A stretch of DNA of 53,893 bases from an uncultured Gemmatimonadaceae bacterium (GTDB lineage Bacteria > Gemmatimonadota > Gemmatimonadetes > Gemmatimonadales > Gemmatimonadaceae), in contig CAZSNV010000001.1 of assembly GCA_964608035.1 (NCBI GenBank), forward strand, positions 1-53,893. Direction: 5' to 3'. Position numbers and translations under genes: made by a program. This document shows positions 22,550 to 46,605 of the stretch, piece by piece. The stretch's first letter is position 1. Every line of letters starts with the position of its first letter. The notes under the pieces are model-generated. The model did not search any database and was not told the origin of the DNA. It saw only the letters and a list, made by a program, of their open reading frames with translations.

Positions 22550-23002
22550 TTGCTTGTTACAATTGCAGCATCGCTGTACGTGACGCCCATGCGTGTCCAC
22601 GGCCCGCTCGGCCCCGTGAGTTGGGAAAGCGTTGCAGTCCTCAACCTGCCGCGAGGCGGTCTCCGTATCGGGAGCGTGGATGCCAGGTTATATCCAGAGG
22701 CGATCCGCTTGCTGCAGTCCCGGGCAACTTCCGGCGTGATCTACGCCGGCCCCGACGCCCCGGAGCTGTACTTCCTTGCACAATTGAAGAACCCGACTCC
22801 GGCGATCTTCGACTTTCTCGTCCCCGACACGCTGTTTCATCCGAACCTCATCCAGCGCCTCGATTCGTCCGGCGTTACCGCGGTGGCTCTCAGGCGGCAC
22901 GTGGTGCACTCACCGCCCCTGGAGCCGGAGGTCGCCGCGGCGTTCGTCAGGCAGTTCCCGATGGCGCTCGAGATCGGGCGCTTCACGCTCCGCTGGAAGT
23001 AA
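22550..23002 (+). pseudogene. C-terminal ~150-aa fragment of a GT-C-like membrane protein, paralogous to the C-terminus of 32486..34459; may still be expressed as a soluble domain
   Basis: ~65% aa identity to residues ~510-657 of the 657-aa protein (YAGPDAPE(L/V)YFLAQL(K/R)NPTPAIFDFLVPDTLFH...GRFT(L/I)RWK). Homology starts abruptly at ~22550, next to a truncated repeat. Confidence 0.55.
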
Positions 23003-23601
23003 TGACGGTCCTCGATCGGATCATGTCGCAGCCGGTGGTCTATCGGCTCTGGCAAGCACCATTCGCGGCCACCAAGCTGGCACCGGTCCTCGCACGGCAG
23101 CCAATCAGGGACGTGCGACGGGTCCTCGACGTTGCCTGTGGGCCCGGAACGAACGCCGCCTGGTTTGCCGGCACGGATTACATCGGCATTGATATCAATG
23201 ACCGCTACATCGCAACGGCGCGCGACCGGCAGCCGGGTCGATTCGTCGCCGCCGACGCGATCACGTGGTCCGCGGAAACCAGCGAACAGTTCGACTTCAT
23301 TCTCGTGAACAGCTTCCTCCATCACCTCGACGATCGCTCTGTCAGCACGCTGCTGCGCAGCCTGCGGACCCGGCTCGAGGTTGGAGGGAAGATGCACATC
23401 CTGGAGCTCGTTCGTCCCCCTTCGTGGGGAGTCGCGCGAGCGCTGGCGCGCCTCGATCGCGGGAGTTACGCCAGACCGCTCGAGGCATGGAGGAAGCTCG
23501 TGGACGAATCGCTGCACATTGAGTGGTTCCAGCCATACGACCTTTCGGCCATGGGCGTGCCGCTGTGGCACATGCTGTACGCCGTGGGCACCGCTCGCTG
23601 A
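23002..23601 (+). CDS. Class I SAM-dependent methyltransferase
   Basis: VLDVACGPGTNA motif I. The ATG overlaps the upstream stop (TAATG). The first 127 codons of tracked ORF 22621..23601 are out-of-frame overlap. Confidence 0.8.
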   Translation: MTVLDRIMSQPVVYRLWQAPFAATKLAPVLARQPIRDVRRVLDVACGPGTNAAWFAGTDYIGIDINDRYIATARDRQPGRFVAADAITWSAETSEQFDFILVNSFLHHLDDRSVSTLLRSLRTRLEVGGKMHILELVRPPSWGVARALARLDRGSYARPLEAWRKLVDESLHIEWFQPYDLSAMGVPLWHMLYAVGTAR

Positions 23602-24545
23602 TGGGCGCACCTGTCCGTGTTTCCGTCGCCCTGCCGGTCTATGACGAGCGCGAAGTCATTCCCGAGCTGGTCGCGCGGCTGCAGGCCGTCCTTCGCGGCA
23701 TACCGGGTGGGCCGCATGAGATCGTATTCGCGGACGACGGGAGTGCTGATGGATCGTTTGAGCTTCTCGTGCAGGCGGCGGCTGGGGATCCATCGATCGT
23801 GGTCGTCCGGCTCGCGAGAAACTTCGGGCATCAGGTGGCGCTGAGCGCGGCGCTTGACCACGCGACCGGAGATGTCGTCGTCCTCATGGACAGCGACCTG
23901 CAGGATGCTCCCGAGGCCATTCCGCTCCTCCTGGCCAAATACGCCGAGGGGTACGACGTGGTTTTCGCGCAGCGCGAGAAGCGGAAGGAGCACCTTCTCC
24001 TGCGGTTGAGCTACTTCCTGTTTTATCGGCTCGCCGCCTGGGTATCGCGCGTGGACCTTCCCCTGGACGCCGGTGACTTTTCGCTGCTGTCGCGGCGCGT
24101 CGCTGACGTCATGCGGCGCTCCCCGGAGCGACATCGTTATCTCAGGGGCCTGCGAGCGTGGTCGGGGTTCCGGCAAGTCGGCGTGCCCATTGAGCGGGCT
24201 GCTCGCACCAAGGGAGCGCCCAAATACACGCTCCGCCGACTCATGGCCCTCGCCCTCGACGGCGTGTTCTCATTCTCCATCGCTCCCCTGCGGGCCGCCG
24301 CGGTCGCGGGAGCGTTGGCGATCCTGGCGTCCACCGCATTCGCGCTCTACAGCATCATCGCAAAGCTGTTCCTGGACAGGTCACCACAAGGGTTCACGGC
24401 ACTCATCGTGGTCATGACATTCGTGTCGGGCGTGCAACTCGTCTTCCTCGGCCTCGTGGGCGAATACGTGGGCAGGATTTACGAGGAGGTCAAGCGTCGG
24501 CCGCTGTATGTCGTGGACCGGGTTGTCGGTCGTGCCGGGACGTAA
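23601..24545 (+). CDS. Polyprenyl-phosphate glycosyltransferase, GT2 (ArnC/DPM1/GtrB-like) with 2 C-terminal TMs
   Basis: VSVALPVYDE, DDGSADGS, RNFGHQ.A and MDSDLQD motifs. C-terminal FVSGVQLVFLGLVGEYVGRIYEEV. The ATG overlaps the upstream stop (TGATG). Confidence 0.85.
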   Translation: MGAPVRVSVALPVYDEREVIPELVARLQAVLRGIPGGPHEIVFADDGSADGSFELLVQAAAGDPSIVVVRLARNFGHQVALSAALDHATGDVVVLMDSDLQDAPEAIPLLLAKYAEGYDVVFAQREKRKEHLLLRLSYFLFYRLAAWVSRVDLPLDAGDFSLLSRRVADVMRRSPERHRYLRGLRAWSGFRQVGVPIERAARTKGAPKYTLRRLMALALDGVFSFSIAPLRAAAVAGALAILASTAFALYSIIAKLFLDRSPQGFTALIVVMTFVSGVQLVFLGLVGEYVGRIYEEVKRRPLYVVDRVVGRAGT

Positions 24546-24581
24546 GGCGAAAGTTCTCCGCCGCCCGGTGCGAAGACGGTC

Positions 24582-25346
24582 ATGAGGCCTGACTACGCGA
24601 GCCACTATCGCGACCTGTACGAGCGGCACTGGTGGTGGCGCACCCGTGAAGTGCTCCTGCTCGACGAGTTGAAGCGGCACGCACCCGCCGGCGGATGGGG
24701 ATCAATCCTCGATGTCGGGTGTGGCGACGGATTGTTCTTCGATCAGCTTGGGCAGTTCGGTGAGGTGTGGGGTGTGGAGCCCGACGCGCGACTGCTCACG
24801 ACGGGCGGCAATCACCGATCTCGCATTCATGAAGGCCCCTTCGATTCCGGGTACAAGCCGGAACGAACTTTTCGGCTCATCCTCATGCTCGACGTGCTGG
24901 AGCACATGTCGAATCCCGAGGATGCCCTGCGTCGCGCCGCCCTGCTTCTCGAACCGGACGGTCGACTGTTACTGACCGTGCCGGCTTTCAGGCTGCTGTG
25001 GACGGCGCACGACGACTTCAACCAGCATGTCGATCGCTACACGATCCGGAGAATCCGCGATCTCGCAGAGCGCGGCGGCTTTGCGGTCGACTCCGCGCGG
25101 TACCTCTTTCGCTGGCTCGTCCCGGCGAAGCTTGCTGTACGCGCCCTCGAGGTGATCACGCCGGGACGCGCCACGCCCGAACGAGTGCCGCACCAGTGGT
25201 TGAACCGTCTGCTCCTAGGACTAAGCCTCGCTGAGGCGCGGCTGCTGGCTCACGTGCCGCTGCCGTTCGGCTCGTCGGTGCTGGTCTGGTGTCGGCGGAA
25301 CGCCGCAGCCTTTTCAGGTACGGCGCCACCGCCTCACGCGTCATGA
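24582..25346 (+). CDS. Class I SAM-dependent methyltransferase
   Basis: ILDVGCGDG motif I, and LDVLEH. Confidence 0.8.
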   Translation: MRPDYASHYRDLYERHWWWRTREVLLLDELKRHAPAGGWGSILDVGCGDGLFFDQLGQFGEVWGVEPDARLLTTGGNHRSRIHEGPFDSGYKPERTFRLILMLDVLEHMSNPEDALRRAALLLEPDGRLLLTVPAFRLLWTAHDDFNQHVDRYTIRRIRDLAERGGFAVDSARYLFRWLVPAKLAVRALEVITPGRATPERVPHQWLNRLLLGLSLAEARLLAHVPLPFGSSVLVWCRRNAAAFSGTAPPPHAS

Positions 25347-25430
25347 GCGTCAACGCCGGTGACGGTGCCGAGGGCAATGATGATCCCTGGAATGTCCAAA
25401 CGTTCATGAACCAGTAGTCGGGTCTCGCGC
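25347..25430 (-). pseudogene. 84-bp fragment of a UbiA-family gene N-terminus (paralog of 26389..27339), frameshifted
   Basis: nt alignment to 27216-27300. Encodes ARPDYWF(M/K)NV...IPGIIIALGTVT(G/D)VDA with one frameshift. Confidence 0.6.
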
Positions 25431-25515
25431 AGCGACCGTGTATCGCACAGGCCTGTTGATGCACGGGAAGCGGGTCACGTTCCGGGAAATGTTTCGTTGG
25501 ATGAAAGCGGCGTAG
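25427..25515 (+). pseudogene. Orphan copy of the last ~29 codons of the ABC-2 permease gene
   Basis: AATVYRTGLLMHGKRVTFREMFRWMKAA* compared with AATVYRTGMLMHGKRVTIREMFRWIRAT* at 22384-22470. Confidence 0.65.
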
Positions 25516-25541
25516 CCGGGATCCCTGGTAGTTCCCCTCGT

Positions 25542-26351
25542 TTAGTGCCCAGCCGAGACGCGGGCGCGCGTCGATGCGTCCCGCGCGGCCTCGAAGTCGC
25601 GGCGGACGATGTCATCCAGTGTGGGCGAATCGTACCGGCCGTTTAGCTGGTTCACCTTGATCGACAGCACGTCCACGACGCTCCGGACAGAATCGCGAAG
25701 CAGTCGGACAGAGGACGTTTCGTTATTCAGCAGCTTGACCGGGATGCGCTTGATGTCGAGCCGGTGTTTTAGGGCCACGTAGACCAGTTCGACGTCAAAC
25801 GCGAATCGGTCGAGCTGCAGGATGGGGAACAAGACATCTGCCACGTCGCCGCGGATGCCCTTGAGGCCGCACTGGGTATCGAAGAAACCGCCCGTGACGA
25901 TCGTGCCGACGAACCCAGTGAAGACCGCCGAGGCAGCGCGGCGACCCCACTCAGTCGCGTGGTGGTAGCTGGATCCCGGAAGCGTACGATCGCCGATGAC
26001 CACGTGAAAAGGGCCATCGCGAAGGTACGCGGTGATCACTGGGATCAAGTCGGTGCCGAACGGCAGGTCCACATCAGTGAAGATGCGGACGTGACCCGTG
26101 GCGGCCAGCATGCCTGTGCGAACCGCTGCGCCTTTTCCGCGGTTCTCTGGATGTTGCAAGAGGCGCGCGTGCGCGGACCCCAAGCGGTTGCCCTCGTGGA
26201 AGTCATTCCCACCGTCGTCAACGACAATGACTTCCCAGGTGAGGCCGTAGTCCTCCAGTGCCGTCGAGAGTTCATCGACTGACCGCCTCGCGAGTTGGGC
26301 AGTCCGGTAACATGGAAGGATGACCGAGAGGTCTGGGCGGGGGCCGTTCAC
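25542..26351 (-). CDS. GT2 glycosyltransferase, soluble (dolichyl-phosphate beta-glucosyltransferase/ALG5-like)
   Basis: LSVILPCY, VVDDGGND, ENRGKGAAV, DVDLPF, and GFFDTQCGLKG motifs. Confidence 0.8.
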   Translation of the reverse strand: MNGPRPDLSVILPCYRTAQLARRSVDELSTALEDYGLTWEVIVVDDGGNDFHEGNRLGSAHARLLQHPENRGKGAAVRTGMLAATGHVRIFTDVDLPFGTDLIPVITAYLRDGPFHVVIGDRTLPGSSYHHATEWGRRAASAVFTGFVGTIVTGGFFDTQCGLKGIRGDVADVLFPILQLDRFAFDVELVYVALKHRLDIKRIPVKLLNNETSSVRLLRDSVRSVVDVLSIKVNQLNGRYDSPTLDDIVRRDFEAARDASTRARVSAGH

Positions 26352-26388
26352 GTCTCCTCGTTGTGCGCCGCGTACGATCCTTGTTGCG

Positions 26389-27339
26389 TCATCCCTGTTG
26401 GGTGGGGGCTGTTGGTGTAAAGAGGCGGTGCAACACCGGTAGATCGACGCGCAGCAGGATGATCATCGCGATGGTCGTGGCCACGACGGCCGTCATCAGT
26501 CCTCGCTCCCGGTAGAGGTGCTCCGGATTCTGGGCGGCGCTGTTCGGCTTGAGCGCCACGCGCAGGTACATCGACATCACCAGCGCCACGAGCGGGAACG
26601 AGAGGATGAGCTCGAGCCTGTAGCGCATGCAGAACGCGCCGAAGAACAGCATCGCCGCGGCTGCGAAGAACATTATCGCGACGATCAGGCGGTCGGGCGT
26701 GTAGTACGCGAAGGAGCGGCGGTACGCGCCCGCTCGTGCTCGATCGCCGATGGCCACTAACTCGGCGTAACGCTTCAGCGCCATGAAATAGCAGCCGATC
26801 ATCCAGTAACTCAGGAGCAGCGACGCCGGAGCCATCGTGTCGCTGGTGACGATGAACCAGCCCGCCAGCATGCGGAGCGGGTTGTTGATCGCTTCCGACA
26901 GCACATCCATGTAAGGCTGGTCCTTGGCGCGCATGGGCGGGACGTTGTAGACCACAGCCATGATCCAGAGCGCCAGGAGCGAGAGCGCGAACGGAATCGA
27001 GACGGTGAGCGCGAGCGCCATGCCGGCGATGAAGAGCACTAGCCATTGCACGTAGGCCGCGGCCGGTCGAACGCGGCCCGATGGGACAGCGCGATTCCGC
27101 TTCTCCGGATGATGGAGGTCGAACGGGGCGTCGAGTACTTCGTTGAGCGTGTAGTTGCTGGACGCGATCAGGCAGGTGGCGACAAGGCCTATGATGATGC
27201 GGACGGCGAGGTCCCGGGCATCCACGTCCGTAACCGTGCCCAGGGCGATGATGATCCCGGGGATGACGAAGACGTTCTTGAACCAGTAGTCCGGTCGCGC
27301 GATTTCGACGTGCGACCGCCAGTCGAATGTTGACTTCAT
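26389..27339 (-). CDS. UbiA family prenyltransferase, decaprenyl-phosphate phosphoribosyltransferase (DPPR synthase, Rv3806c)-like
   Basis: NYTLNEVLDAPFDLHHPEKRNRAVPSG resembles the N(D/E)xxDxxxDxxHPxKxxR motif. ~8 TMs. The start is moved to ATG 27339 (MKSTFDW). Confidence 0.8.
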   Translation of the reverse strand: MKSTFDWRSHVEIARPDYWFKNVFVIPGIIIALGTVTDVDARDLAVRIIIGLVATCLIASSNYTLNEVLDAPFDLHHPEKRNRAVPSGRVRPAAAYVQWLVLFIAGMALALTVSIPFALSLLALWIMAVVYNVPPMRAKDQPYMDVLSEAINNPLRMLAGWFIVTSDTMAPASLLLSYWMIGCYFMALKRYAELVAIGDRARAGAYRRSFAYYTPDRLIVAIMFFAAAAMLFFGAFCMRYRLELILSFPLVALVMSMYLRVALKPNSAAQNPEHLYRERGLMTAVVATTIAMIILLRVDLPVLHRLFTPTAPTQQG

Positions 27340-27436
27340 CGAAGATGGCTGCGATGTACTCGCCGAATACTCCAAGAAAAATGAGCTGGACACCGCTGAA
27401 CACTGAAATCAGGATGGCGAGGGTGGCGCAGTGCAA
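27340..27436 (-). pseudogene. C-terminal TM fragment of an ArnC-like GT2 gene, abutting the UbiA start codon
   Basis: ATLAILISVFSGVQLIFLGVFGEYIAAIFDEV compared with FVSGVQLVFLGLVGEYVGRIYEEV (23601..24545) and LGLAIVMLGVIGEYVWRIFDEV (38321..39244). Confidence 0.55.
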
Positions 27437-27532
27437 CCATCGAGGCTAACATCTTGGTCATCTGTCGGCTTCCAAGCCGACGTAGGTTCGGCCGCTGGGG
27501 TTGCCGGCTGCCCGCTCGGTTCGTCGTCCGTC

Positions 27533-28504
27533 ATGCCACGCGTCCGCATCGTCCAGCTTCGGATTCTCGGCGCCATGCTTGGTGCCTGCTGGGCCGTGCA
27601 GGTCGCGAAACCGATGGTGGGCACTCCCTACGTCAGCGACATGGACCAGAACCGCGTCGCCATGCGCCTGCTTTGGGAGGGCCGGGACCCATACGCTACA
27701 ATCGGTCCGCACCAGACCGCGGAGCTGCGCCAGGGTTTCAGGTACCTCTATCCGCTGACAGCGCCGCTCGTGGTAGCCCCGCTCGCGTGGCTGACTGCGG
27801 GACAATTTCGCCTCGTCTGGGTCGCGCTCACCGCATTTGCCTTTCTGTTCCTCGCGAGTCGCGATGGGCTTCACCGGATGCTCATCGCCGGTTCCGGCGC
27901 CTTCTACATGTTCGCGTACTTGGTCCAATGGACGCCCGCGTTGGCAACAGCACTGTTTGTGCCGGCTACTGGGTTCCTCATCGCCGCGAAACCGCAGCTC
28001 GGGCTCGCCGTACTCGCTGGCCTCCGGTCGTGGCGCGACCTGTGGATTGTGCTGACGCTCGCCGCCGCGCTCTCGCTCGCGAGCGTAATTCTGTGGCCGT
28101 GGTGGCCATCCCGATGGCTCGCGATGCTAGGCACTGCCGACCATGTGCGGTCGCTCGTCTCCGTACCCGGTGGCCCCCTTTTATTGCTCGCCCTAATCCG
28201 GTGGCGTCAGTGGGAGGGGCGTTTGCTCGCCGCGATGGCGATCATTCCACAGACGCCCAGCGTCGAAACAACTCTACTTCTGCTGCTCATCCCCCAGACC
28301 TGGGCTGGTGTGACAGTGCTCGCTGTCGGCACGTGGATCACAGTCCTCGCCGTCTCGAACGTACATAGCTTCCCATCATACTTGGACTTCTCGGCCGCGC
28401 ACGCGCAAATGCTTGTGCTCACGGTCTATCTGCCCGCGCTGGTGATGGTCCTCCGTCGCCCGAAGGGGACGCCGGCCGAAGTTGGTCATGCGCTCATCCA
28501 ATGA
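27533..28504 (+). CDS. Polytopic membrane protein, GT87/DUF2029-like GT-C glycosyltransferase (paralog 1 of 3)
   Basis: First-loop motif D.D....A.RLLWEGRDPY. ~9 TMs. Alignable along its length with 43032..44021 and 45634..46605. The start is moved to ATG 27533. Confidence 0.65.
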   Translation: MPRVRIVQLRILGAMLGACWAVQVAKPMVGTPYVSDMDQNRVAMRLLWEGRDPYATIGPHQTAELRQGFRYLYPLTAPLVVAPLAWLTAGQFRLVWVALTAFAFLFLASRDGLHRMLIAGSGAFYMFAYLVQWTPALATALFVPATGFLIAAKPQLGLAVLAGLRSWRDLWIVLTLAAALSLASVILWPWWPSRWLAMLGTADHVRSLVSVPGGPLLLLALIRWRQWEGRLLAAMAIIPQTPSVETTLLLLLIPQTWAGVTVLAVGTWITVLAVSNVHSFPSYLDFSAAHAQMLVLTVYLPALVMVLRRPKGTPAEVGHALIQ

Positions 28505-28556
28505 AGGTGGGCACAAAGACACGTGCACTGCATCGAGCGAACCTGCCACGTTGAGG

Positions 28557-30293
28557 TCAGCGAGGCAACATCTGTTGAGCAAAGCCATTTGCTGCCTGTG
28601 AAGGGCGGTACAGCAGCAGAGTACCGTCGCTGTTGACAGGAACCCACTCCGCGGGCGTGGGAAAATGCTCGCTGACCTGCGCAAGAACGAACTCAGCGCC
28701 ATGATCCCTCATCTTCTCCAGCACCGCTACTCGGCGGAGCGAATCTGCTTCCCAGAAGGCCGCCACCTCAGGAGCGGGAATCACGCTGACAAAGCGAAGC
28801 CCCGCTAGTTGCGCCCAGTAGGCCTTGTAGGGATTTCCCACCAAGCCGATCCGCGTTCCCGAGCGAATCCCCAACTGCCGAAGCATGTCGGTTGATGCGG
28901 TCCACGCCGCGTAGACGCGCTCGTTAGTCCGTCGTCCTTTGAATAGCGCAATCGTTTCGGTGAAGCTATACGCCACCAGCAGAAGCGCCGCGAAGGTGAA
29001 TCCACGACGCATTCGGCTTGACAGCTGATCAACTGCGTCGGGAAGAACGAGCCCGGCAAGCAATATCACAGCGAATGGAGCGATATAGCGTGGCTCCGAG
29101 TACGAGAGCGCATAGAGCGCCAGCACGAACAGAGCCGGTAGAACCAGAACACCCCCAGTTCGGAATCGATTCTTCGCCAGGCTTCGTTGGCGCGACGTGA
29201 TCAGCGCGAGAAGCGCGGCAAGGATGAACAGAAAGAAATGGCGCACATAGCCGAGCGCATTTCTAGCTGCTCCTGTGAGCGTTTCTTTCAGCGCCAACGG
29301 CACATGCACGTGACGATACCAGTACGAAGCGTCATACCAGATCGGCAGCGTACCCGGGACCGGACCATCGACAGGGTAGACCATCGGATGATCATCGGTG
29401 ACGGGATCGAGGACTCGCAACTTCTGCTTCGGTCCGTCCGGCGAAGGCATGAATGCCGGAAGAATCCCTGGACCGATGTCCCCCAGGGGCGCGGGCACAC
29501 GTGCAGTGTACCATGCGTGCGCGAGGCGCCCAACATCGCCAATGGTAGGTGCTCCCTTGAGTAGGGACACGTAAACCATCTGGGGCATACAAATCACCGC
29601 GAACACCGCCACAGCGACTATTACGCCAAGCCGACTGCGACGAGTTGCAGTCAATGCCACAGCCGCTAGGATCGCGATGCCAATCGGAAGCATCGCGGTC
29701 TTCGTCAAGTAGCCAAGTCCGAGGACCACTCCGAGCGCAATCCATCGATACACGAGACCATCGTTGCGCACAATTCTTATAGATAGCCCGGCGGCAAGGT
29801 ATGCCAGCACCGCGACGCCGAGGTCTGGAGTGAGAAGACGCAGTGTAATCCACGACAGAGACGTCCAGGCGAAGAGCAGATACACGAGCACGGTCCACGT
29901 GAACATCGTTTCGTAAAAACCGGGATCATCCCGCGGCGTGACCGCACGGACACTCCGAATGAAATACTCTGCCGCTGCGAGGCTGCTCAAAAAGAGAATG
30001 AGATTCACGGCATGGGCGAGCACCCACGCATTCGTCATGTTCGTGCCGCCGACGAGGCGCGCTGCCGCCAACAACGTCGGATAGATCGGGCTCCAGTATC
30101 CGGAGCTCGAGAGCGGCCAGTTCCCCTCGAGGTAGTGCCCACTCACGTCGACATACGAGATGCCATCTGGATTGGGGATGTAGCGCCAGGTCCAGGCTGC
30201 AAGGGCACCGAGCACGACGATCAGCAGCCGTAACGCCACAAGAAGCCGTCGCTGCAAGGCAGTTTCCAAACTGCCTGTCTCTGGAGCGCTCAT
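28557..30293 (-). CDS. GT-C fold membrane glycosyltransferase (ArnT/PMT, GT39/GT83-like) with C-terminal soluble domain
   Basis: Acidic/aromatic first loop (PNPDGISYVDVSGHY). GLGYLTKTAM motif. >10 TMs. Confidence 0.7.
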   Translation of the reverse strand: MSAPETGSLETALQRRLLVALRLLIVVLGALAAWTWRYIPNPDGISYVDVSGHYLEGNWPLSSSGYWSPIYPTLLAAARLVGGTNMTNAWVLAHAVNLILFLSSLAAAEYFIRSVRAVTPRDDPGFYETMFTWTVLVYLLFAWTSLSWITLRLLTPDLGVAVLAYLAAGLSIRIVRNDGLVYRWIALGVVLGLGYLTKTAMLPIGIAILAAVALTATRRSRLGVIVAVAVFAVICMPQMVYVSLLKGAPTIGDVGRLAHAWYTARVPAPLGDIGPGILPAFMPSPDGPKQKLRVLDPVTDDHPMVYPVDGPVPGTLPIWYDASYWYRHVHVPLALKETLTGAARNALGYVRHFFLFILAALLALITSRQRSLAKNRFRTGGVLVLPALFVLALYALSYSEPRYIAPFAVILLAGLVLPDAVDQLSSRMRRGFTFAALLLVAYSFTETIALFKGRRTNERVYAAWTASTDMLRQLGIRSGTRIGLVGNPYKAYWAQLAGLRFVSVIPAPEVAAFWEADSLRRVAVLEKMRDHGAEFVLAQVSEHFPTPAEWVPVNSDGTLLLYRPSQAANGFAQQMLPR

Positions 30294-32153: not shown

Positions 32154-32272
32154 CTACTTAACATGATGGGTCGAACGAGGGTGGGTGCTGCCCGGGCCGA
32201 CCGTCCCAGGGTCGTCAATCGGCTTGAAGATCCCCACGATTTCTGCCTCATCGAAGACAGGAGTTTTGTCGG
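32154..32272 (-). pseudogene. Decayed 3' end (~39 codons) of a TadG-like gene, paralog of 48265..49488 and 49815..51038
   Basis: KTPVFDEAEIVGIFKPIDDPGTVGPGSThprsthhVK* compared with QTPAFDAAEIVGIFKPIDDPGTVGPGSTTLVRPILVK*. There are compensating indels near the end, and the gaagactactt context 3' of the stop codon is also conserved. Confidence 0.65.
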
Positions 32273-39244: not shown

Positions 39245-40212
39245 GGACGCGGTACGCGCCCTGTCCGATAGACGAGAACCTCGAACTGATCGTCAACGGC
39301 GCGTTGGACGGGACCGATCTGGACCTGTTCAACCTGCGTGCCTTTCAGGACCTCCACGCGCCGGACGCGCTACGCAGTTTCCATTCGGCACTGATCGACC
39401 GCCGGTCCGGTGCAGTCACGGCCACGGTGCACTTTCACGAACGGTCGGCGGGAGAGATGGCGAGCCCATTCCGCGGGTCATTCGGCGGCTTCACCGTGGT
39501 TCCCGGCGCGCCGCTCACAATTGCGGAAATGGTTGCTTTCGTTGGCGCCGTAGAGGCGCATCTGGTGACTGAGGGCGCGACACGATTGAGCGTAGTCATG
39601 CCGGCGCTTGCGTACCACCTTCCCGAGACGTCAACCTGGATCGATATCCTGCTGCGCCGCGGGTTCAACGTTTCGCGGCACGAACTGAGTTACGGGATCA
39701 ACGTAGTCGGGGAATTCGTGGATCGAATCGATTCCGGCAACCGGAAACGACTTCAGAAGTGCATCCGCGACGGACTGATGGCCTCAAGCCTCCCCCGATC
39801 TGAGTTCGAGACTGCCTACCGAGTCGTGGCTGAAAATAGGAGCAAGCGGGGATACACGTTGTCGATGTCGTGGCAGACATTCGTTGCAATGGCAGACGCG
39901 TTGCCGGATCACGTCACCTGCTTCGCCGTCAAGCGCGGCGCTGATCCAATCGCAGCCGCCCTGTGTCTGCGCATCAACAGTCACGCGCTGTACGTGGCGC
40001 ATTGGGGCGAGATTGCCGGCGTCGAGGCGTGGAGCCCGGTGACATTCCTCGCCAGTCACCTGTTCGAGTACTGCCGCGCAGCCGACATCCGGCTCCTGGA
40101 CCTCGGCACTGCCAACATCGATGGCGCTCCAAATCACGGCCTGATTCGGTACAAGAAGAACCTCGGTTGTTCCGAAAGCCTGAAGCTCACGCTCGACAAG
40201 CGGTTCTCGTGA
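39241..40212 (+). CDS. FemAB/CelD-like GNAT-fold acyl(aminoacyl)transferase (PF13480-like)
   Basis: ...FAVKRGADPIAAALCLRINSHALYVAHWGE... and GLIRYKKNLGC resemble the BioF2/FemAB-like acetyltransferase fold. ATGA overlap with the upstream GT2. Confidence 0.6.
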   Translation: MRTRYAPCPIDENLELIVNGALDGTDLDLFNLRAFQDLHAPDALRSFHSALIDRRSGAVTATVHFHERSAGEMASPFRGSFGGFTVVPGAPLTIAEMVAFVGAVEAHLVTEGATRLSVVMPALAYHLPETSTWIDILLRRGFNVSRHELSYGINVVGEFVDRIDSGNRKRLQKCIRDGLMASSLPRSEFETAYRVVAENRSKRGYTLSMSWQTFVAMADALPDHVTCFAVKRGADPIAAALCLRINSHALYVAHWGEIAGVEAWSPVTFLASHLFEYCRAADIRLLDLGTANIDGAPNHGLIRYKKNLGCSESLKLTLDKRFS

Positions 40213-40946
40213 GAGATCTCGACCGATACCAGTCGGAATACGTTGCGACCTATGGATTCGAGGCCCACATGGTCCGGTACCGGCGACGCCAGGTCCTCAA
40301 GTGCCTGAGGGACTATTCGCACCGCCACGTGCTCGAAGTGAGTTGTGGGCTTGATCCACTCGCACATTATGTCGATGACTGGGACACTTACATCGTCGTA
40401 GAACCAGGGGCCACCTTCGCGGCGAATGCTCGCGAGTTAGCCAGCAAAGGCAAGCCGTTTGTCGTGCACGAAGCGACCATTGAGCAGGCGGCGACCGTGC
40501 TGACCGGTCAACATTTCGATTTCATCGTCGTATCCGGGCTCATTCACGAGGTCGTTGCTCCTCAGCAGGTTCTGGGAGCCGTCCGAACACTCTGCGACGA
40601 TGACACGATCGTGCACGTCAACGTTCCCAACGCGCGGTCGCTGCACAACAGGCTGGGATTGAGGATGGGCCTGATCCCCGATCTTTTCGCGCTGTCACCG
40701 CTCGCCGAGCGCCTTCAACGCAAGAGCACGTTTGACTTGCGATCGCTCAGCGACTTCGTGCGCCAGGCAGGCTTCGAGGTTGACTCATCCGGCTCGTACT
40801 TTCTGAAGCCGTTCACGCATGAGCAGATGCAACAGATGCTGGATCAGGGCGTCATCGATGTGCGCGTGCTCGACGCGCTATTCGACGTCAACGAGGAGTT
40901 CAGCGATCTCGGAGCCGAGATTTTCGTGAACCTGAAACGCCGATGA
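40209..40946 (+). CDS. SAM-dependent methyltransferase
   Basis: VLEVSCGLDP, and FDFIVVSGLIHEV. The GTG start overlaps the upstream stop (GTGA). Confidence 0.7.
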   Translation: MRDLDRYQSEYVATYGFEAHMVRYRRRQVLKCLRDYSHRHVLEVSCGLDPLAHYVDDWDTYIVVEPGATFAANARELASKGKPFVVHEATIEQAATVLTGQHFDFIVVSGLIHEVVAPQQVLGAVRTLCDDDTIVHVNVPNARSLHNRLGLRMGLIPDLFALSPLAERLQRKSTFDLRSLSDFVRQAGFEVDSSGSYFLKPFTHEQMQQMLDQGVIDVRVLDALFDVNEEFSDLGAEIFVNLKRR

Positions 40947-41006: not shown

Positions 41007-41891
41007 CTATCTGGACGAACTACCAGGTTCTCGCAGCAGAGACCGCAGGTAGACTCCGTACGAAGAGTTTCCCAGCGTGTCTGCCAGCCGCTCAAGCTCT
41101 TGAGCCGTGATATAGCCCTGCCGGTAGGCGATCTCCTCCGGGCACGCGATTTTTAGTCCCTGCCGTGACTCGATTGTCTGGATGAATGAACTCGCATCCT
41201 GAAGCGATTCGTGCGTTCCCGTGTCCAGCCATGCCATACCGCGGCCCAGCATCTCGAGATGAAGCGTGCGGCGGCGCAGGTACTCGCGGTTCACGTCCGT
41301 GATCTCGTACTCGCCGCGGCTGGAAGGTCGCAGACCGCGCACGATCTCGAGCACTTCATTGTCGTAGAAATAGAGGCCCGCAATGGCGTAGTTGGAGCGA
41401 GGCCGCTCAGGTTTCTCTTCGATGGATAGAACGCGTCCGTCGGCATCGACCTCAGCTACGCCGTAACGCTCCGGGTCCTTGACATAGTAGCCGAAGATCG
41501 TAGCGCCAACCGGCCGTGACGCGGCGCGGTGAAGGAGTCCCGTCAGCCCGCCGCCGTAGAAAATGTTGTCGCCAAGGACGAGGGATACGGGTGCCGAGCC
41601 AACAAACTCGCGTCCAATGGTGAACGCCTGCGCCAGCCCACCCGGCGTTTCCTGGACTGCGTATTGCAAGCTCAATCCCCATTGTGTTCCGTCGCCGAGC
41701 AGTTCCGAGAAGCGCGGCACGTCCCTTGGCGTCGAAATGACGAGAATATCCCGAATGCCCGCCAGCATCAGCGTCGTCAGCGGATAGTAGACCATCGGCT
41801 TGTCGAACACCGGAAGCAGCTGCTTGCTGATCACCCGTGTCACCGGGTACAGCCTTGTGCCCTCTCCCCCAGCCAGGATGATCCCTTTCAC
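41007..41891 (-). CDS. rfbA: Glucose-1-phosphate thymidylyltransferase
   Basis: [17 protein letters not shown]...[18 protein letters not shown] at 41891 overlaps the rfbB stop (GTGA). Confidence 0.9.
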
Positions 41892-42955
41892 TGGTCTCCT
41901 CCCAGTCCAAGGCGATGGCCCCGATACCCGCCGCTTCGGATCCGTTGCCACCACGCATCATGGTCCGCGTACCAGCGAACGGTATCGCGTAACGCCGAGT
42001 CGAAATCCGTCGAGGGGCGCCATCCGAGTTCCTGGCGGAGTTGCGTGGCATCAATCGCGTATCTGAGGTCGTGCCCGGGTCGATCGGTGGTGAACTCGAT
42101 GAGCTGACGGCGCGATCCCGGTTTGTCGCCCAGCAGCGCGTCGACGCTGTCGCAGATTGCATGGGCGACATCGATATTGCGCCGCTCGTTTTCCGCGCTG
42201 ACCACGTACGTTGCTCCGGGGGTTCCGCGGCGAAGCATCAGCAGAAGGGCCGCGACATGATCGGTCACGAAGAGCCAGTCCCGGACGTTTTCTCCACGTC
42301 CGTAGATAGGAATCGGTTTTCCTTCGAGCGCGTTGAGAATGGTCAATGGAATCAGCTTCTCGGGAAACTGAAACGGACCAAAATTGTTCGAGCAGTTCGA
42401 CACCATGGTTGGCAGGCCGTAAGTCCGTTGCCAGGCGCGAACAAAGTGGTCTGCCGACGCCTTGCTGGCCGCGTAGGGAGAACTCGGATCATATGGGGTA
42501 GTCTCGGAGAAAAACCCGGTGTGCCCCAATGATCCGAAAACCTCGTCCGTTGATACATGAAGAAACCGAAAACTATCCCCCGCGCCGGCATCCAATGACT
42601 GCCAGTATTCGTGCGCCTCGCGAAGCATCTCGAACGTGCCAACCACATTGGTCTCGACGAATGGCGCCGGACCGTCGATTGAACGGTCTACATGCGTTTC
42701 GGCGGCGAGGTGAATGACGTACTTGGGCCGGTGCCGGTCGAAGATCCGACGGATCGCAGGAGCATCGCAGATGTCTGCGTTTTCGAAATGGTACCGGGGG
42801 CTACCCGCAACCGATGCCAGGGAATCAAGGTTGCCAGCGTAGGTGAGTTTGTCGATGTTGACGACGTTGCCGGCCGCTTCCCCAATCAACGCACGTACCA
42901 GAGCTGAGCCAATGAAACCCGCGCCACCGGTAACCAGATAGGTTGTGTCGGACAT
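41888..42955 (-). CDS. rfbB: dTDP-glucose 4,6-dehydratase
   Basis: [15 protein letters not shown](F/Y)G, YAASKA. The start is at ATG 42955. Confidence 0.9.
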
Positions 42956-43031
42956 AGCCCCTGGAAGGGTGACCAACAATTTGGGACGCGATCAGCCCCT
43001 CGCGCCACGTCCAGCACCTGAACCACCGTCG

Positions 43032-44021
43032 GTGAAACAGCGGCTTATGGTCGCCGCGGTGATTGGATTCGTGTGCGCACTTTACGTCGTAATGCACGGA
43101 CGTGCCAACCCTGATTTCACGAGCGATTTCGATCAGGTTTGGGCAGGGGCCCGCGCGCTGTGGCAGGACAAGGATCCATACACCGTCGTGGGACCAGGGC
43201 GGGAGTTCGGTTGGCGATGGCCGCTGTATTATCCTCTCCCCGCGCTCGTCACCGTCGCTCCGTTAGGCCTGCTGCCCGTGCTTGCCGCGCGCGCGATCTT
43301 TGGCGGGATGTCCGCGGCCCTTCTCGCATGGGCGATTACGCGCGACGGCTGGAGCCGACTCCCCATCTTCCTCAGCGTCTCCTTCATGGTCACGATGGAG
43401 CTTGGTCAATGGTCGGCGCTCTACGCCGCTGCGTTCTTCATCCCGGCGCTAGGAGCCATTGGCATCGCAAAGCCGAACTTCGGGGTCGCTCTGGCCGCGG
43501 CAGCGCCTCGACAACAGACGCTGGCGTGGCTCGCCGCGGGCACGTTCGCCCTTCTCGCCATCAGCCAGCTCCTGCAGCCGGGTTGGCACGAATCCTGGCT
43601 CGACAACCTCCGCGCCGCCGACCACTTCAAGCCGCACGTGCTGCGGCCCTTCGGTTTCCTCCTTCTGCTGGCCGCCCTCAAGTGGCGGCGGCCGGAAGCG
43701 CGATGGCTGCTCGCCCTCGCCCTCATTCCGCAGGCCCCATCGTTCTACGATCAGCTGCTGCTGGCCGTGGTCTGCCTGACGAGAGCGGAGGCGCTTGTCT
43801 TTGCGTCCGCCACTATCGTGTTGTTTTTCTATGTGGGGTTCAACACGCCACAGCCGGACTATGAATCCTGGGGACGCATGGTCGGCAATGGAACGCTCTG
43901 GATCTGCTACTTCCCGGCGTTGGTGATGGTGTTGCGGCGGCCTAACGAGGGAGTGATGACAATACCCTTCTCCTGGCTGGATCGGATCGGGCGTAACAGC
44001 AAACGCGATGTGCGGTCGTAG
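43032..44021 (+). CDS. GT87/DUF2029-like GT-C membrane protein (paralog 2 of 3)
   Basis: SDFDQVWAGARALWQDKDPY, then an aligned TM pattern. The start is ambiguous (GTG 43032 or ATG 43047). Divergent from rfbB. Confidence 0.6.
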   Translation: MKQRLMVAAVIGFVCALYVVMHGRANPDFTSDFDQVWAGARALWQDKDPYTVVGPGREFGWRWPLYYPLPALVTVAPLGLLPVLAARAIFGGMSAALLAWAITRDGWSRLPIFLSVSFMVTMELGQWSALYAAAFFIPALGAIGIAKPNFGVALAAAAPRQQTLAWLAAGTFALLAISQLLQPGWHESWLDNLRAADHFKPHVLRPFGFLLLLAALKWRRPEARWLLALALIPQAPSFYDQLLLAVVCLTRAEALVFASATIVLFFYVGFNTPQPDYESWGRMVGNGTLWICYFPALVMVLRRPNEGVMTIPFSWLDRIGRNSKRDVRS

Positions 44022-44027
44022 AATTCG

Positions 44028-45554
44028 ATGACGCGCTCGGATGCACGCATGGACTCCCTTGAGGGACCTGACCGGACTACAGGACGGATTCTCCTCATTC
44101 TGCTCATAGTGAGCGCCTGGGCTCTGTATCGGCCGGAACTCGCCCGTCCTTTTGACTATGTGGACTTTCCCGAGGACATCCTCGTCCTTCAGCCGCATGA
44201 GGGCCTCCGGGAGCAGTATGAGACACTGTCGCAGGTGTACGCCGCCCACGGACGCTGGAAGCCAATCGCGAATGCGCTGTTGGCGGGCCAGTGGTCCTGG
44301 TTTGGGAATTGGACGCCGGGGTGGCAATTGGCACGCTTCGCCGTAATGGTCGCTGTCCTTTTCATTTCGTTCTCGTTGTTTCGCAAGCTTCGATTGGGTC
44401 CTGCAGGCGCCTTCGCCGCTGCCGCAGCGCTTGTCGTATCGCCTCCAGCCGTGATGGGTTGGCTGCGACTCAGCACGCCAGAGCCGGTCGGTCTATTGCT
44501 GTTGGCAATCGCGTGTCATGTGGCTCTGGCGCGCGCAAAGCTTGCGCCGTGGCTCCTGGCATTGCTGCTGCTTGGCGTGATGTGGACGAAAGAGATCATG
44601 ACCGCAGCGTTTGTGGTGCCTGCCCTTCTGGTTATCACCTCGAGCGACAATGGCTCACTCAGGAAGTTCCAGTTCGATCGCCAGCGACTGTTGATGCTCA
44701 TGCCGTCATTCCTGGTTCTCGTCGTGGGCTCGCTCCCGATCTTGTGGACCTGGCGGTCTTCTCCTCCCGACTCGTTCGCCTCGCGCTACGCTAGCAGCGG
44801 CATATCGTTCGCGGATATCGCGGGCGGGTCGCTCGCCGCATGGCTCCCCTTCGCGCCTGTGCCAGAACCCTCGCGCCTTGCGCTGCTTGTCGTGATTGTG
44901 GCGTTTCTTGTCCTCATCGTCGCCGGCTGGCAGCAGGCATTGGAACCAGATGAATTGCAGGGGCACCGTCGGGTTGTTCTCTTACTCGCTCTTGGTGTGC
45001 CGGTTCTCGGTGCTGCGATGTATTCACCTTGGCCGTTCTATCTTCTCATTTACGCGCTTCCGTTTGTGCTCGCCGGGTCCCTCCTTATGGGCCAGGCCGT
45101 GTCTTCGCTCAGCGTCGTGCGGCATTTGCGCGCCATCAGCCTCTCGTGCCTGACGATTGTGTTGACCTACGCCCTGGCGCAGGCGGCCAACGAATCCTCG
45201 CGCATGCGCGCGCTGCACCGGGCGTTCGCGGAATCGGTCACCCGCGTCGCCGCTATGCAGAATGTGGATACTGTCCTGGTGGACGTTGCGATGAACCAGT
45301 ATGACAGCCGCGGGAATTTCGGACCGAGATTCAAGAACTACGCAAGGATGCTGGGCCTTGAGTGGCCGCATGTCGTCGACGTACCGTGTGCTCGCCCGGG
45401 CGCGTTGGGTCCGAGGACTATTCAACTGCGTCTCAATCTGATGTGCGCCATTGAGGGGACTGTCCCGTCTCTCGTCGAGCGCTTCGCGCGATTTGACTGG
45501 CCGAATCCCCGTCCCCAGCGTGACAGCATCACAGTTTCCTTTCTGGCTAACTGA
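44028..45554 (+). CDS. Divergent GT-C-like polytopic membrane protein (paralog of 35056..36642)
   Basis: AWALYRPELARPFDYVDFPED, WSWFGNWTPGWQL, and MWTKE. Confidence 0.6.
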   Translation: MTRSDARMDSLEGPDRTTGRILLILLIVSAWALYRPELARPFDYVDFPEDILVLQPHEGLREQYETLSQVYAAHGRWKPIANALLAGQWSWFGNWTPGWQLARFAVMVAVLFISFSLFRKLRLGPAGAFAAAAALVVSPPAVMGWLRLSTPEPVGLLLLAIACHVALARAKLAPWLLALLLLGVMWTKEIMTAAFVVPALLVITSSDNGSLRKFQFDRQRLLMLMPSFLVLVVGSLPILWTWRSSPPDSFASRYASSGISFADIAGGSLAAWLPFAPVPEPSRLALLVVIVAFLVLIVAGWQQALEPDELQGHRRVVLLLALGVPVLGAAMYSPWPFYLLIYALPFVLAGSLLMGQAVSSLSVVRHLRAISLSCLTIVLTYALAQAANESSRMRALHRAFAESVTRVAAMQNVDTVLVDVAMNQYDSRGNFGPRFKNYARMLGLEWPHVVDVPCARPGALGPRTIQLRLNLMCAIEGTVPSLVERFARFDWPNPRPQRDSITVSFLAN

Positions 45555-45633
45555 CGTTGACTTGCTGCGATTCAACTGGATGCGTCACCGCGCCACCTGA
45601 AATGGTCGATCTGGCCCTATATGGGGCGACCTG

Positions 45634-46605
45634 GTGAAGACCGGCGACCGGGCCGTTACCGCGCTCGCTCTGGGCGGCTGGGGCGCGTTCATCGCGTACT
45701 TCTCGATGGTTTCGCACCCGCAACACCTCGCCAAGGACTTCTCGTACCCCTGGCGCGCCGCGCGCGCCCTGCTCGCCGGCGACAATCCCTATGAGGTCAT
45801 GCGGGCCGTCGGCGAGTACCCGTTCAACGCCGGGTTGCTGTATCCACTCCCCGCCGCCCTCGTCGCCACACCATTTGCTCCCCTGCGACCCGAGATCGCT
45901 GGCGCCCTCTTCGTGGGACTCTCCGCCGCGCTCCTCGGCTGGGCCGTGCTTCGCGATTGCCCGTACCGCCTCCCGCTCTTCATCAGCGCTCCCTTCGTCC
46001 AGGCTGCAATCCTCGGCCAATGGTCGCCGCTCCTGACCGCGGCTGCGCTGATGCCCACACTGCAGTTCCTGGCCGCGGCCAAACCGACCGTTGGCCTGGC
46101 GGCCTGGCTTTACCGCCCGTCGCTCAGGGGAATCATCGGAGGACTGATCCTCGTCGCCGCCGCATTCCTCGTGCTGCCGCAATGGCTGGGCGACTGGCGC
46201 GAGGTCTTGGGGAGCACCAACAAGTACCGCGGGCCGGCGACGACCTTGTTAGGCGCTTTCCTCCTCCTCGGCCTGCTCCGCTGGCGGCGGCGCGAAGGGA
46301 GGCTCTTCGTCGCGATGTCGCTGATTCCCCAGCTCCCAGTCTTCTACGACTCGCTGATCCTCTGGCTCATTCCGTCCACGCTCTGGCGATCTCTCGCTCT
46401 CTCCGCGGCGAGCTGGGTCGGTTACCTCGCCTGGTATCCCAGCCGGGCATCACCACTCCAAAACGAAATCGCGTTCCCTTGGCTCGTCTTAACCATCTAC
46501 GCTCCTGCGCTCGTGCTCCTGCTACTGCTACCGGCGCGGGAAGAGCCCGAAAAAACGCAGAGCGCAGATTCCGGATTACAGGTCGCAGGAAAAAGCGAGC
46601 AGTGA
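45634..46605 (+). CDS. GT87/DUF2029-like GT-C membrane protein (paralog 3 of 3)
   Basis: KDFSYPWRAARALLAGDNPY. GTG start. Collinear with the other two paralogs. Confidence 0.6.
   Translation: MKTGDRAVTALALGGWGAFIAYFSMVSHPQHLAKDFSYPWRAARALLAGDNPYEVMRAVGEYPFNAGLLYPLPAALVATPFAPLRPEIAGALFVGLSAALLGWAVLRDCPYRLPLFISAPFVQAAILGQWSPLLTAAALMPTLQFLAAAKPTVGLAAWLYRPSLRGIIGGLILVAAAFLVLPQWLGDWREVLGSTNKYRGPATTLLGAFLLLGLLRWRRREGRLFVAMSLIPQLPVFYDSLILWLIPSTLWRSLALSAASWVGYLAWYPSRASPLQNEIAFPWLVLTIYAPALVLLLLLPAREEPEKTQSADSGLQVAGKSEQ

Follow-up and report, generated by a model that had tools for sequence, protein, structure and literature searches.

How can a bacterial locus crowded with membrane glycosyltransferases make or modify a glycan when it encodes none of the machinery that initiates, polymerizes and exports a surface polysaccharide? 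This question is raised by contig CAZSNV010000001.1 of an uncultured Gemmatimonadaceae bacterium, the whole of which (53,893 bp, 60–69% GC) is the window analysed here. Between positions 22,550 and 46,605 it encodes seven polytopic membrane proteins that are candidate GT-C glycosyltransferases, together with GT2 glycosyltransferases, a UbiA-family protein, S-adenosylmethionine (SAM) methyltransferases and a dTDP-amino-sugar pathway. We mapped the genes from six-frame open reading frames (ORFs), GC content at third codon positions (GC3) and Pfam and NCBIfam scans. The span is probably a strain-variable glycan-modification island, in which several modules for periplasmic glycosylation of the three-component type are stacked in a fixed chromosomal slot, bounded by an ABC-2 permease gene on one side and by Tad pilus genes on the other. 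The elements that a sequence-only reading had listed for the span were all recovered, at or near the places where it had put them. Its proposed logic, with sugars loaded singly on polyprenyl phosphate and transferred by GT-C enzymes outside the cytoplasm, fits the enzyme families and folds that we describe below.

Membrane glycosyltransferases and their donor synthases

The seven GT-C candidates were sorted by BLASTP into four sequence families, denoted here A, B, C1 and C2 (Table 1; genes are named by their first coordinate). The sequence-only reading had counted three families; C1 and C2, however, are not detectably similar to each other by BLASTP or hhalign, and the number is therefore four. 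These cannot be merged, since hhalign found no significant similarity among the four family profiles. The PDB, searched with each of the four by sequence and by profile, yielded no relevant match, and only fold comparison was informative.

The three family A proteins (27533, 43047 and 45634) share about 35% identity with each other and are compact, with about 320 aa. When the AlphaFold model of the 43047 protein was compared with known structures by Foldseek, the two top ranks were taken by the PimE structures 9dm5 and 9dm7 (probability 1.0, TM-score 0.50–0.57, matched chains of 367–383 residues), followed by ALG3 and ALG12; only these exceeded a TM-score of 0.3, and the remaining matches were noise below 0.2. 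The sequence-only reading had called this trio GT87/DUF2029-like. The closest solved structure, PimE, is a GT87 enzyme, but Pfam does not match directly: at E ≤ 0.01 no Pfam family was found for the three proteins, the gathering threshold of GT87 (PF09594) was not reached, and among 30 distant family A representatives seven matched GT87 weakly (best E 2.7e-4), with no other family recurring. Family A is large, comprising 2061 clusters at 50% identity (E ≤ 0.001).

Family B is small (21 matches in the search for relatives), and its two members, 35056 and 44028, are 28% identical over about 500 aa. For the model of the 44028 protein the top 23 Foldseek matches were all GT-C enzymes with probability 1.0, including ALG12 (E 3.6e-6), ArnT (E 5.5e-5), STT3, AftD, AftA, PglB, DPY19 and Pmt4. 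On these predicted models, families A and B adopt the GT-C fold. Both are unnamed in Pfam and NCBIfam; NCBIfam gave only faint matches to WsfD and Rv1678 for the two families, and Pfam gave none.

The remaining two proteins point towards PMT_2 (PF13231). This family was matched by 6 of 23 relatives of C1 (best E 5e-7; one of the six also matched GT22), and for two C1 homologues PF13231 is recorded in their precomputed annotation. A search of metagenome contigs gave 523 relatives of C2; PMT_2 was matched at E ≤ 0.01 by 18 of the 25 scanned, which matched no other family. Fold comparison for A and B and the weak, sub-threshold PMT_2 matches of C1 and C2 both speak for the seven GT-C-type proteins that had been proposed.

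Conserved residues agree with this assignment. The acidic motifs after the first transmembrane helix (SDFDQ, RPFDYVDF, NPDGISYVD and PHDEG) and the lysines of the TK(E/T) or AKPN motifs, to which the sequence-only reading had drawn attention, vary little or not at all in the alignments of their families. The aspartates concerned are D27 in A, D46 in B (where D43 is nearly invariant), D43 in C1 and D82, within HDEG, in C2, and each of the four families has an invariant mid-protein lysine (K198 in C1). Within family A, K142 is invariant in both alignments made (A1 and A5), and D27 is invariant in A1 and nearly so in A5. Catalysis by PimE depends on an aspartate, D58, at the tip of JM1 and on a phosphate-binding lysine, K195 (PMC12041525); D27 and K142 lie in comparable regions, a correspondence of regions and not a residue-level superposition. 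By the positive-inside rule the aspartate-bearing first loop would face the periplasm. Large periplasmic tails had been ascribed to all seven proteins; four indeed have a sizeable C-terminal periplasmic domain, but family A is compact. That the GT-Cs use polyprenyl-phosphate-linked sugar donors is only implied by the donor synthases encoded with them.

These synthases are of two kinds. PF00535 was matched above threshold by all four GT2 enzymes, which by their sequences belong to the polyprenyl-phosphate-sugar synthase group, as had been proposed, with two ArnC/PgfS-like members, one AglJ-like and one PpgS-like. GT2_30876 also resembles the NCBIfam Dol-P-hexose transferase. PpgS and Ppm1, like GT2_25542, lack a C-terminal anchor. 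None of the four reached an equivalog cut-off (PgfS 230 against 500 bits, ArnC 187 against 529, AglJ 133 against 325, PpgS 45 against 370). The second kind is the UbiA-family protein, for which NCBIfam PRK08238 and the DPPRS/PPPRS models gave E values of 1e-21 to 1e-25, as compared with 1e-10 for the next subfamily, chlorophyll synthase; its best PDB match is Rv3806c (8j8j, E 2.9e-13). An ORF at 26348–27436 on the reverse strand was considered as the UbiA gene and rejected, the true gene lying in another frame.

The Pfam and NCBIfam scans also recovered the four SAM methyltransferases and the dTDP-amino-sugar pathway that had been read from the sequence. The acyltransferase 39241–40212 is probably the N-acylase of the amino sugar. 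Start and stop codons overlap (ATGA, GTGA or TAATG) at seven gene junctions, in line with the translational coupling that had been suggested. The related locus L002 encodes (3185–4663, reverse strand) a protein of 492 aa in which, by precomputed Pfam annotation, a methyltransferase domain is joined to a GT2 domain, and this fusion supports a functional link between methyltransferase and lipid-sugar synthase.

The absence of classical polysaccharide genes, which had made the locus look unusual, extends over the whole window. No ORF of the 54 kb encodes an initiating phosphoglycosyltransferase, Wzx, Wzy, Wzz, Wza, Wzm/Wzt or a WaaL-type protein, no match was found to PF02397, PF00953, PF01943, PF04932, PF02706 or PF02563, and no Leloir glycosyltransferase is present among the window ORFs besides the four GT2s. 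That these genes are missing from 54 kb of sequence is no proof of an autonomous system. The modules might instead add decorations to a polymer whose synthesis is encoded at another place in the genome.

Table 1. Coordinates of the island genes, of the gene remnants among them and of the conserved flanking genes
Feature	Coordinates	Strand	Evidence and remarks
ABC-2 permease	21187–22470	+	ABC2_membrane_3 (PF12698), E 1.2e-42; conserved left flank of island
5'-truncated C2-type GT-C remnant, C-terminal 144 aa	22550–23002	+	67% aa identity to residues 513–656 of 32486 protein; 74% nt identity over 432 bp
SAM methyltransferase	23002–23601	+	Methyltransf_25/23/11; start overlaps stop of upstream fragment (TAATG)
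GT2, ArnC/PgfS-like, two C-terminal transmembrane helices	23601–24545	+	Glycos_transf_2 E 6e-28; full-length PgfS E 3e-68, ArnC E 4e-55
SAM methyltransferase	24582–25346	+	Methyltransf_23 E 4e-21
ABC-2 permease 3'-end remnant	25429–25522	+	Direct repeat D4, 94 nt, 80% identical to 22384–22477
GT2, PpgS/Dol-P-hexose-synthase-like, no C-terminal transmembrane anchor detected	25542–26351	-	Glycos_transf_2 E 5e-16; full-length PpgS E 7e-12
UbiA-family, closest to DPPRS/PPPRS	26389–27393	-	UbiA E 6e-25; conserved core member
Family A GT-C paralogue 1 (PimE-like)	27533–28504	+	Family-invariant positions present
C1 GT-C candidate, weakly PMT_2-like, C-terminal periplasmic domain	28557–30293	-	PMT_2 19.3 bits against cut-off of 26.1
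SAM methyltransferase	30321–30872	-	Methyltransf_23 E 7e-17
GT2, AglJ/DPMS-like polyprenyl-phosphate hexose synthase, four C-terminal transmembrane helices	30876–32108	-	Glycos_transf_2 E 1.5e-26; AglJ E 1.7e-38
tadG-like 3'-end remnant	32184–32270	-	Repeat D3, 84% and 76% identical to 48295–48380 and 49845–49930
C2 GT-C candidate, PMT_2-like, ~150-aa C-terminal periplasmic domain	32486–34459	+	PMT_2 25.6 bits against cut-off of 26.1
Deletion scar	34456–34830	+	First 55 codons of MT_23002 paralogue joined to last 60 codons of MT_24582 paralogue
Family B GT-C	35056–36642	-	Coupled to upstream aminotransferase gene (GTGA overlap)
DegT/ArnB-family sugar aminotransferase	36639–37784	-	DegT_DnrJ_EryC1 E 1e-119; best NCBIfam ArnB, PseC
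FdtA/WxcM-type dTDP-4-keto-6-deoxyhexose 3,4-isomerase	37781–38185	-	FdtA E 7e-42
GT2, ArnC/PgfS-like, two C-terminal transmembrane helices	38321–39244	+	Glycos_transf_2; full-length PgfS E 1.6e-45, ArnC E 3.6e-39
FemAB-like/GNAT acyltransferase	39241–40212	+	Acetyltransf_6 E 2.8e-7; ATGA overlap with GT2_38321
SAM methyltransferase	40212–40946	+	Methyltransf_23 E 2.8e-11; GTGA overlap with preceding gene
RmlA, glucose-1-phosphate thymidylyltransferase	41007–41888	-	NTP_transferase E 5e-71
RmlB, dTDP-glucose 4,6-dehydratase	41888–42979	-	GDP_Man_Dehyd/Epimerase E 8e-85
Family A GT-C paralogue 2 (PimE-like)	43047–44021	+	AlphaFold model, predicted local distance difference test (pLDDT) 91.4
Family B GT-C	44028–45554	+	AlphaFold model, pLDDT 89.5; ~100-aa C-terminal beta-rich domain
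Family A GT-C paralogue 3	45634–46605	+	Orthologue always last gene before Tad locus
TPR protein of Tad locus	46620–48329	-	TPR families; conserved right flank, same position in relatives

A conserved core, mobile cassettes and their scars

To see which parts of the span belong together we mapped the window proteins on 13 related loci (L002–L014, most with at most 10 kb of flank per side), and later on one more (L015). The relatives found in the genome collection were all metagenome-assembled genomes (MAGs) of Gemmatimonadaceae, as are the named homologues of the window proteins. The slot itself is conserved: its left side is formed by CoxM and the ABC-2 permease wherever the flank is covered (L003, L007, L009 and L010), and its right side by TPR, TadG, TadC and TadB genes in L002–L012. 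The vicinity of a Tad pilus locus, which had been seen in this one contig, is therefore shared by its relatives.

Within the slot, the recurrent content is the UbiA gene with three to seven tandem family A genes, often accompanied by a PpgS-like GT2 gene. Orthologues of UbiA (66–75% identity) were found in most related loci with enough flank, those of GT2_25542 stand beside UbiA in L005–L007 and L010–L012 (53–68%), and those of 45634 adjoin TPR or TadG genes in L002–L012 and in L015 (55–87%). In L009 the whole island, from the permease to the Tad genes, consists of UbiA and four family A genes. Other genes (those of family B, GT2_30876, C1 and those for sugar nucleotides) are present in some loci and absent from others; in L015 a GT2_30876 orthologue (82% identity) lies directly upstream of a C1 orthologue (58%).

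Family A was also found in L014 and L013. L014 holds the largest array seen, with seven tandem paralogues at 3301–10918, and also a 651-aa protein without Pfam match. In L013 (5283–7534) a 45%-identical family A gene lies beside an Acyl_transf_3 membrane acyltransferase, an IS110 transposase and dnaN/dnaA, and family A is thus not always linked to Tad genes.

The C2 group recurs as a cassette of its own. Among 37 metagenomic loci with enough sequence, genes resembling MT_23002, GT2_23601 and MT_24582 follow the C2 homologue in this order in 12, and partial cassettes (methyltransferase then GT2, or GT2 then methyltransferase) occur in 8 more; the GC content of these loci spans 51–71%. A GT2_23601-type gene stands directly downstream of the C2 homologue in 24 of the 37, and in 20 of the 24 a methyltransferase gene accompanies it. 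As the gene order recurs in metagenomic loci, the arrangement GT-C–methyltransferase–GT2–methyltransferase is a widespread cassette. The 24 kb are not conserved as a single unit; the island is a lineage-conserved core with independently mobile cassettes, and it carries the scars of their movement.

There are four scars, of two kinds. At the left end, the segment 22550–23002 is not a gene but a gene fragment, the remnant of a C2-type gene, and is followed by an intact methyltransferase–GT2–methyltransferase set. Directly after the intact C2 gene, at 34456–34830, two methyltransferase pieces are fused; by tblastn they are 75% and 63% identical to their paralogues, and the second contains an in-frame stop. 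The left copy thus keeps the methyltransferase–GT2–methyltransferase set and the right copy the GT-C gene with a fused methyltransferase stub, showing that two copies of one cassette have decayed reciprocally.

The other scars derive from the flanking genes. At 25429–25522 the last 94 nt of the permease gene occur a second time, which marks 22478–25428 as an inserted cassette, and a tadG-like 3' end (translation DKTPVFDEAEIVGIFKPIDDPGTVGPGST) lies upstream of the GT2_30876–methyltransferase–C1 cassette. Remnants of both flanking anchor genes inside the island indicate that the cassettes came in through recombination at these conserved flanks. GC content is 0.60–0.62 across 28–46 kb, as compared with 0.63–0.69 in most flanking windows. 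A further sign of diversification comes from a 5.5-Mb contig of the ENA, ctg4075650, both ends of which lie within the locus (L002 at 5484272–5505189, L015 at 1–16868). The two locus versions share only 64–90% nt identity, and such divergent versions at both ends of one assembly indicate strain-level variation; it is likely that strain heterogeneity of the island broke the assembly.

We asked whether the ABC-2 permease could be an exporter of the Wzm type or a flippase, and discarded it as evidence for either. It does not resemble Wzm, belongs to PF12698 (with a weak match to ABC_perm_CPBP), has a large loop between its first and second transmembrane helices, has no ATPase gene beside it in the window, and is part of the conserved flank. 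The gene is conserved beside the island in relatives and in L010 is embedded among island genes, and in L007 an ABC ATPase gene adjoins it in divergent orientation. A repeat of about 40 nt (GGGAGATGTGAGA type) forms a long hairpin upstream of the permease gene (21054–21164) and has an inverted copy just past its stop codon (22472–22513). Its 15-nt core has nine matches in the window with up to three mismatches, seven of them within the repeats, as compared with 1.8 expected; the repeat may be an element of the repetitive extragenic palindromic (REP) kind or a terminator.

On the other side, 46.6–53.9 kb is a Tad pilus locus encoding the TPR protein, two TadG-like proteins, TadC, TadB and TadA. 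The tandem TadG-like genes (48265–49575 and 49815–51089, reverse strand) are 84% identical over the first 300 nt compared, and relatives have one or two copies. The TadG-like proteins contain 17–18% serine and threonine, a proportion that is uninformative on glycosylation. The first 21 kb of the window hold housekeeping genes, encoding a deoxyhypusine-synthase-like protein, QueG, proteases, an extracytoplasmic function (ECF) sigma factor, a beta-lactamase-fold protein, RNase D, a GHL10 protein, a xanthine/CO-dehydrogenase set and an M23 peptidase. The sigma factor gene (7767–8342, reverse strand) is followed by an overlapping 288-aa ORF without Pfam match (7070–8342 region), possibly an anti-sigma factor; this is unconnected with the glycosylation island. 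Neither an Rfam scan nor a tRNA scan of the window gave a match, and a tandem-repeat scan found no phase-variation tracts within the island genes.

A proposed mechanism and the competing explanations

The analysis shows the folds or families of the enzymes, the grouping of their genes in modules, the conserved core and the mosaic history; in the mechanism that we propose, donor identities, methylation step, flippase and acceptor are inferred. A cytoplasmic GT2 of the ArnC/GtrB/DPMS/PpgS type would load one sugar on polyprenyl (undecaprenyl) phosphate; alternatively, the DPPRS-like UbiA would load a pentofuranose from phosphoribosyl pyrophosphate (PRPP). A neighbouring SAM methyltransferase may then modify the nucleotide sugar or the lipid-linked sugar. 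We place this step on the cytoplasmic side because SAM would be available only there. The lipid-linked sugar would be moved across the membrane by a flippase, and a GT-C would pass it to the acceptor on the periplasmic face.

Four modules would work in this way. The core module consists of UbiA 26389, the PpgS-like GT2_25542, the three family A proteins (27533, 43047 and 45634) and B_44028. One cassette is GT2_30876–methyltransferase–C1, and a second C2–methyltransferase–GT2_23601–methyltransferase, now split in two decayed copies. The third appears to be supplied with dTDP-3-amino-3,6-dideoxyhexose, and comprises RmlA and RmlB, FdtA–DegT–B_35056 and GT2_38321–acyltransferase–methyltransferase. 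We base the pairing of GT2_23601 with C2, of GT2_30876 with C1, of GT2_38321 with B_35056, and of UbiA and GT2_25542 with family A and B_44028 on the gene overlaps and on the conservation of the cassettes. Since PimE, ALG3 and ALG12 extend lipid-linked glycans, the family A paralogues most likely extend a lipid-anchored or membrane-proximal glycan stepwise, one linkage each. A bolder version, which we regard as unlikely, is that the core builds a pentofuranose oligomer or polymer wholly in the diderm periplasm. Such a glycan would resemble arabinan or ribofuranan but occur outside the Actinobacteria, would be carried either by a lipid anchor or by Flp/Tad pilins, and would be the product of a large GT-C family (over 2000 clusters) without a name in current databases.

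Several points weigh against the three-component mechanism. The sub-threshold PMT_2 matches of C1 and C2 mark these two as GT-Cs only weakly. The subfamily matches of UbiA all fall below the curated cut-offs, and its motif is NExxDxxxD (NEVLDAPFD) as opposed to NDxxDxxxD. No 5'-phosphoribose phosphatase (HAD/PAP2), DprE1/E2 or other epimerase is found among the window ORFs, nor does any phosphatase or epimerase lie between the flanks of the minimal island L009; a phosphatase would be required after a PRPP-dependent step. For a flippase (GtrA, SMR, MATE, ArnE/F) there is no unannotated multi-helix ORF in 22–47 kb, and no scanned ORF of the window matches a flippase family of Pfam. We know of no characterised ArnC-type GT2 that uses dTDP-sugars. 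The array of L014, a 12-kb contig, is accompanied by an ArnC-like GT2 and there is no UbiA on that contig; UbiA and family A are therefore not exclusively linked. Finally, the window genes point to no acceptor, be it lipopolysaccharide (LPS), another polysaccharide, a lipoglycan or a protein.

Of the competing explanations, the first two discussed here are sub-cases of the proposed mechanism that differ in the acceptor. It is quite possible that the island serves for decoration only, each module adding a single side-chain sugar (a methylated hexose, an N-acyl-3-amino-6-deoxyhexose or a pentofuranose) to a polysaccharide or LPS O-chain built by a classical pathway elsewhere in the genome, in the manner of Gtr, GacI–L and the Citrobacter ribofuranose (Ribf) system. 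The accessory cassettes have just the composition of known side-chain systems, one synthase and one GT-C (PMC11127046), and they are mobile and variable between strains, like serotype-converting modules. The GT-Cs with extra C-terminal domains (B, C1 and C2) moreover resemble ORF12 and Emb, which bear carbohydrate-binding modules. However, no backbone pathway is found in the 54 kb, and the core has three to seven GT-C paralogues for one or two donor synthases, a ratio that better fits sequential elongation or branching.

Such elongation is what an autonomous lipoglycan would involve, with a lipid primer extended outside the cytoplasm by families A and B, as in mycobacterial lipomannan and lipoarabinomannan (LM/LAM) or arabinan. 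The PimE-like fold of family A, the presence of AftA and AftD among the structural neighbours of family B, the several conserved paralogue groups, which imply several linkages, and the minimal islands, which have no donor synthases other than a DPPRS-like UbiA and a PpgS/Ppm1-like GT2, all agree with this idea. Yet the window encodes neither a primer-forming PimA/PimB-like GT4 nor DprE1/E2, and family A stays below the Pfam threshold for GT87. No lipoglycan was reported for the phylum in a full-text literature search, a result that is in itself uninformative. We consider this explanation somewhat unlikely.

That UbiA and family A glycosylate Flp/Tad pilins, or further proteins of the envelope, with oligomers of pentofuranose is improbable. 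In favour of this idea, wherever a related locus has sufficient flank its family A array adjoins Tad genes (49–87% identity), despite rearrangements, a tadG 3' remnant lies inside the island, the DPPRS-like UbiA parallels the P. aeruginosa TfpW precedent and PMT_2-like enzymes include protein O-mannosyltransferases. Against it, the island and the Tad genes are convergent and therefore not one operon, the compared loci all come from one bacterial family so that the synteny is perhaps simply inherited, the 45%-identical gene of L013 sits beside DnaA/DnaN and an acyltransferase instead of Tad genes, the nearest structures to family A (PimE, ALG3 and ALG12) act on lipid-linked glycans and not on proteins, and the window contains no Flp pilin gene.

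Comparison with known glycosylation systems

The proposed mechanism of multi-module periplasmic glycosylation belongs to a known class. Three-component systems, including a pentofuranose version with a UbiA-type PPPRS and a GT-C, have been described as widespread in bacteria (PMC11127046). As these systems are already established, the general principle is not new, and the impression of a system without precedent holds only for the lineage, the enzyme families and the architecture. To these belong the two unnamed GT-C families A and B, the array of compact PimE-like enzymes partnering a DPPRS-like enzyme, the methyltransferases as regular cassette members, the cassette apparently fed by a dTDP-amino sugar, and the gathering of four modules in one recombination hotspot. 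Literature searches on the surface glycans of Gemmatimonas and Gemmatimonadota and on GT-C enzymes of Gemmatimonadetes returned nothing relevant; the present locus suggests that Gemmatimonadota have a glycoconjugate that varies between strains and is assembled mostly outside the cytoplasm.

The pairing of a GT2 that has a C-terminal membrane anchor with a GT-C is shared with GtrA/B/C of Shigella and Salmonella phages, ArnC/ArnT, GacI/GacL, CsbB/YfhO and PgfS/PgfM of S. mutans. The island differs from these three-component systems in having no flippase gene, in having a SAM methyltransferase as a regular member of the cassette, in stacking three cassettes and a core, and in feeding one cassette apparently from a dTDP-3-amino-6-deoxyhexose pathway instead of a UDP-sugar. 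With the Arn pathway it shares ArnB-like (231 against a cut-off of 631 bits), ArnC-like and ArnT-like proteins, but ArnA, ArnD and ArnE/F have no counterparts in it: no UDP-glucuronic acid decarboxylase/formyltransferase, deformylase or SMR pair is encoded, and its amino-sugar pathway starts from dTDP-glucose.

A likeness to archaeal N-glycosylation (Agl) is also seen, since GT2_30876 is most similar to AglJ and to the Dol-P-hexose transferase. The Agl pathway comprises the Dol-P-hexose synthases AglJ and AglD, the SAM methyltransferase AglP and the GT-Cs AglS and AglB, and in it a lipid-linked sugar is methylated prior to transfer. If the island methyltransferases likewise act on polyprenyl-phosphate sugars, they would provide a general route to O-methylated side-chain sugars. 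The context here is nevertheless bacterial, and no member of the STT3/AglB/PglB oligosaccharyltransferase family was identified by sequence.

For the core, the closest Gram-negative parallels are ORF12–15 (GT136) of Citrobacter youngae O1/O2 and TfpW of P. aeruginosa Pa5196, where a UbiA-family enzyme of the DPPRS kind likewise stands beside GT-C genes (PMC11127046). In P. aeruginosa, TfpW transfers D-arabinofuranose (D-Araf) onto the type IV pilin with the help of a DPPRS orthologue (PMC11127046), and in strain Pa5196 pilus genes neighbour the system, as they do in the island. Compared with these PPPRS systems, the island has no HAD/PAP2 phosphatase, MATE flippase or epimerase, its UbiA carries the motif NExxDxxxD, and its GT-C partners are three to seven compact PimE-like proteins in place of a single GT136 or TfpW. 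The minimal island of L009, with UbiA and four family A genes, is the smallest unit on which this combination can be tested.

The combination of a PimE-like GT-C, an Rv3806c-like UbiA and a PpgS-like GT2 (PpgS/Rv3779) is that of the mycobacterial phosphatidylinositol mannoside (PIM), LM/LAM and arabinogalactan pathways, where many GT-C paralogues are similarly fed by few lipid-linked donors. The differences are that the island comes from another phylum, Gemmatimonadota, that its family A proteins are shorter than the PimE chains which they matched and stay below the Pfam threshold for GT87, and that it is without DprE1/E2, PimA/B and Emb-type enzymes. In the way it diversifies, the locus has yet another counterpart: the scars show cassette exchange by recombination at conserved flanks, much as in O-antigen loci.

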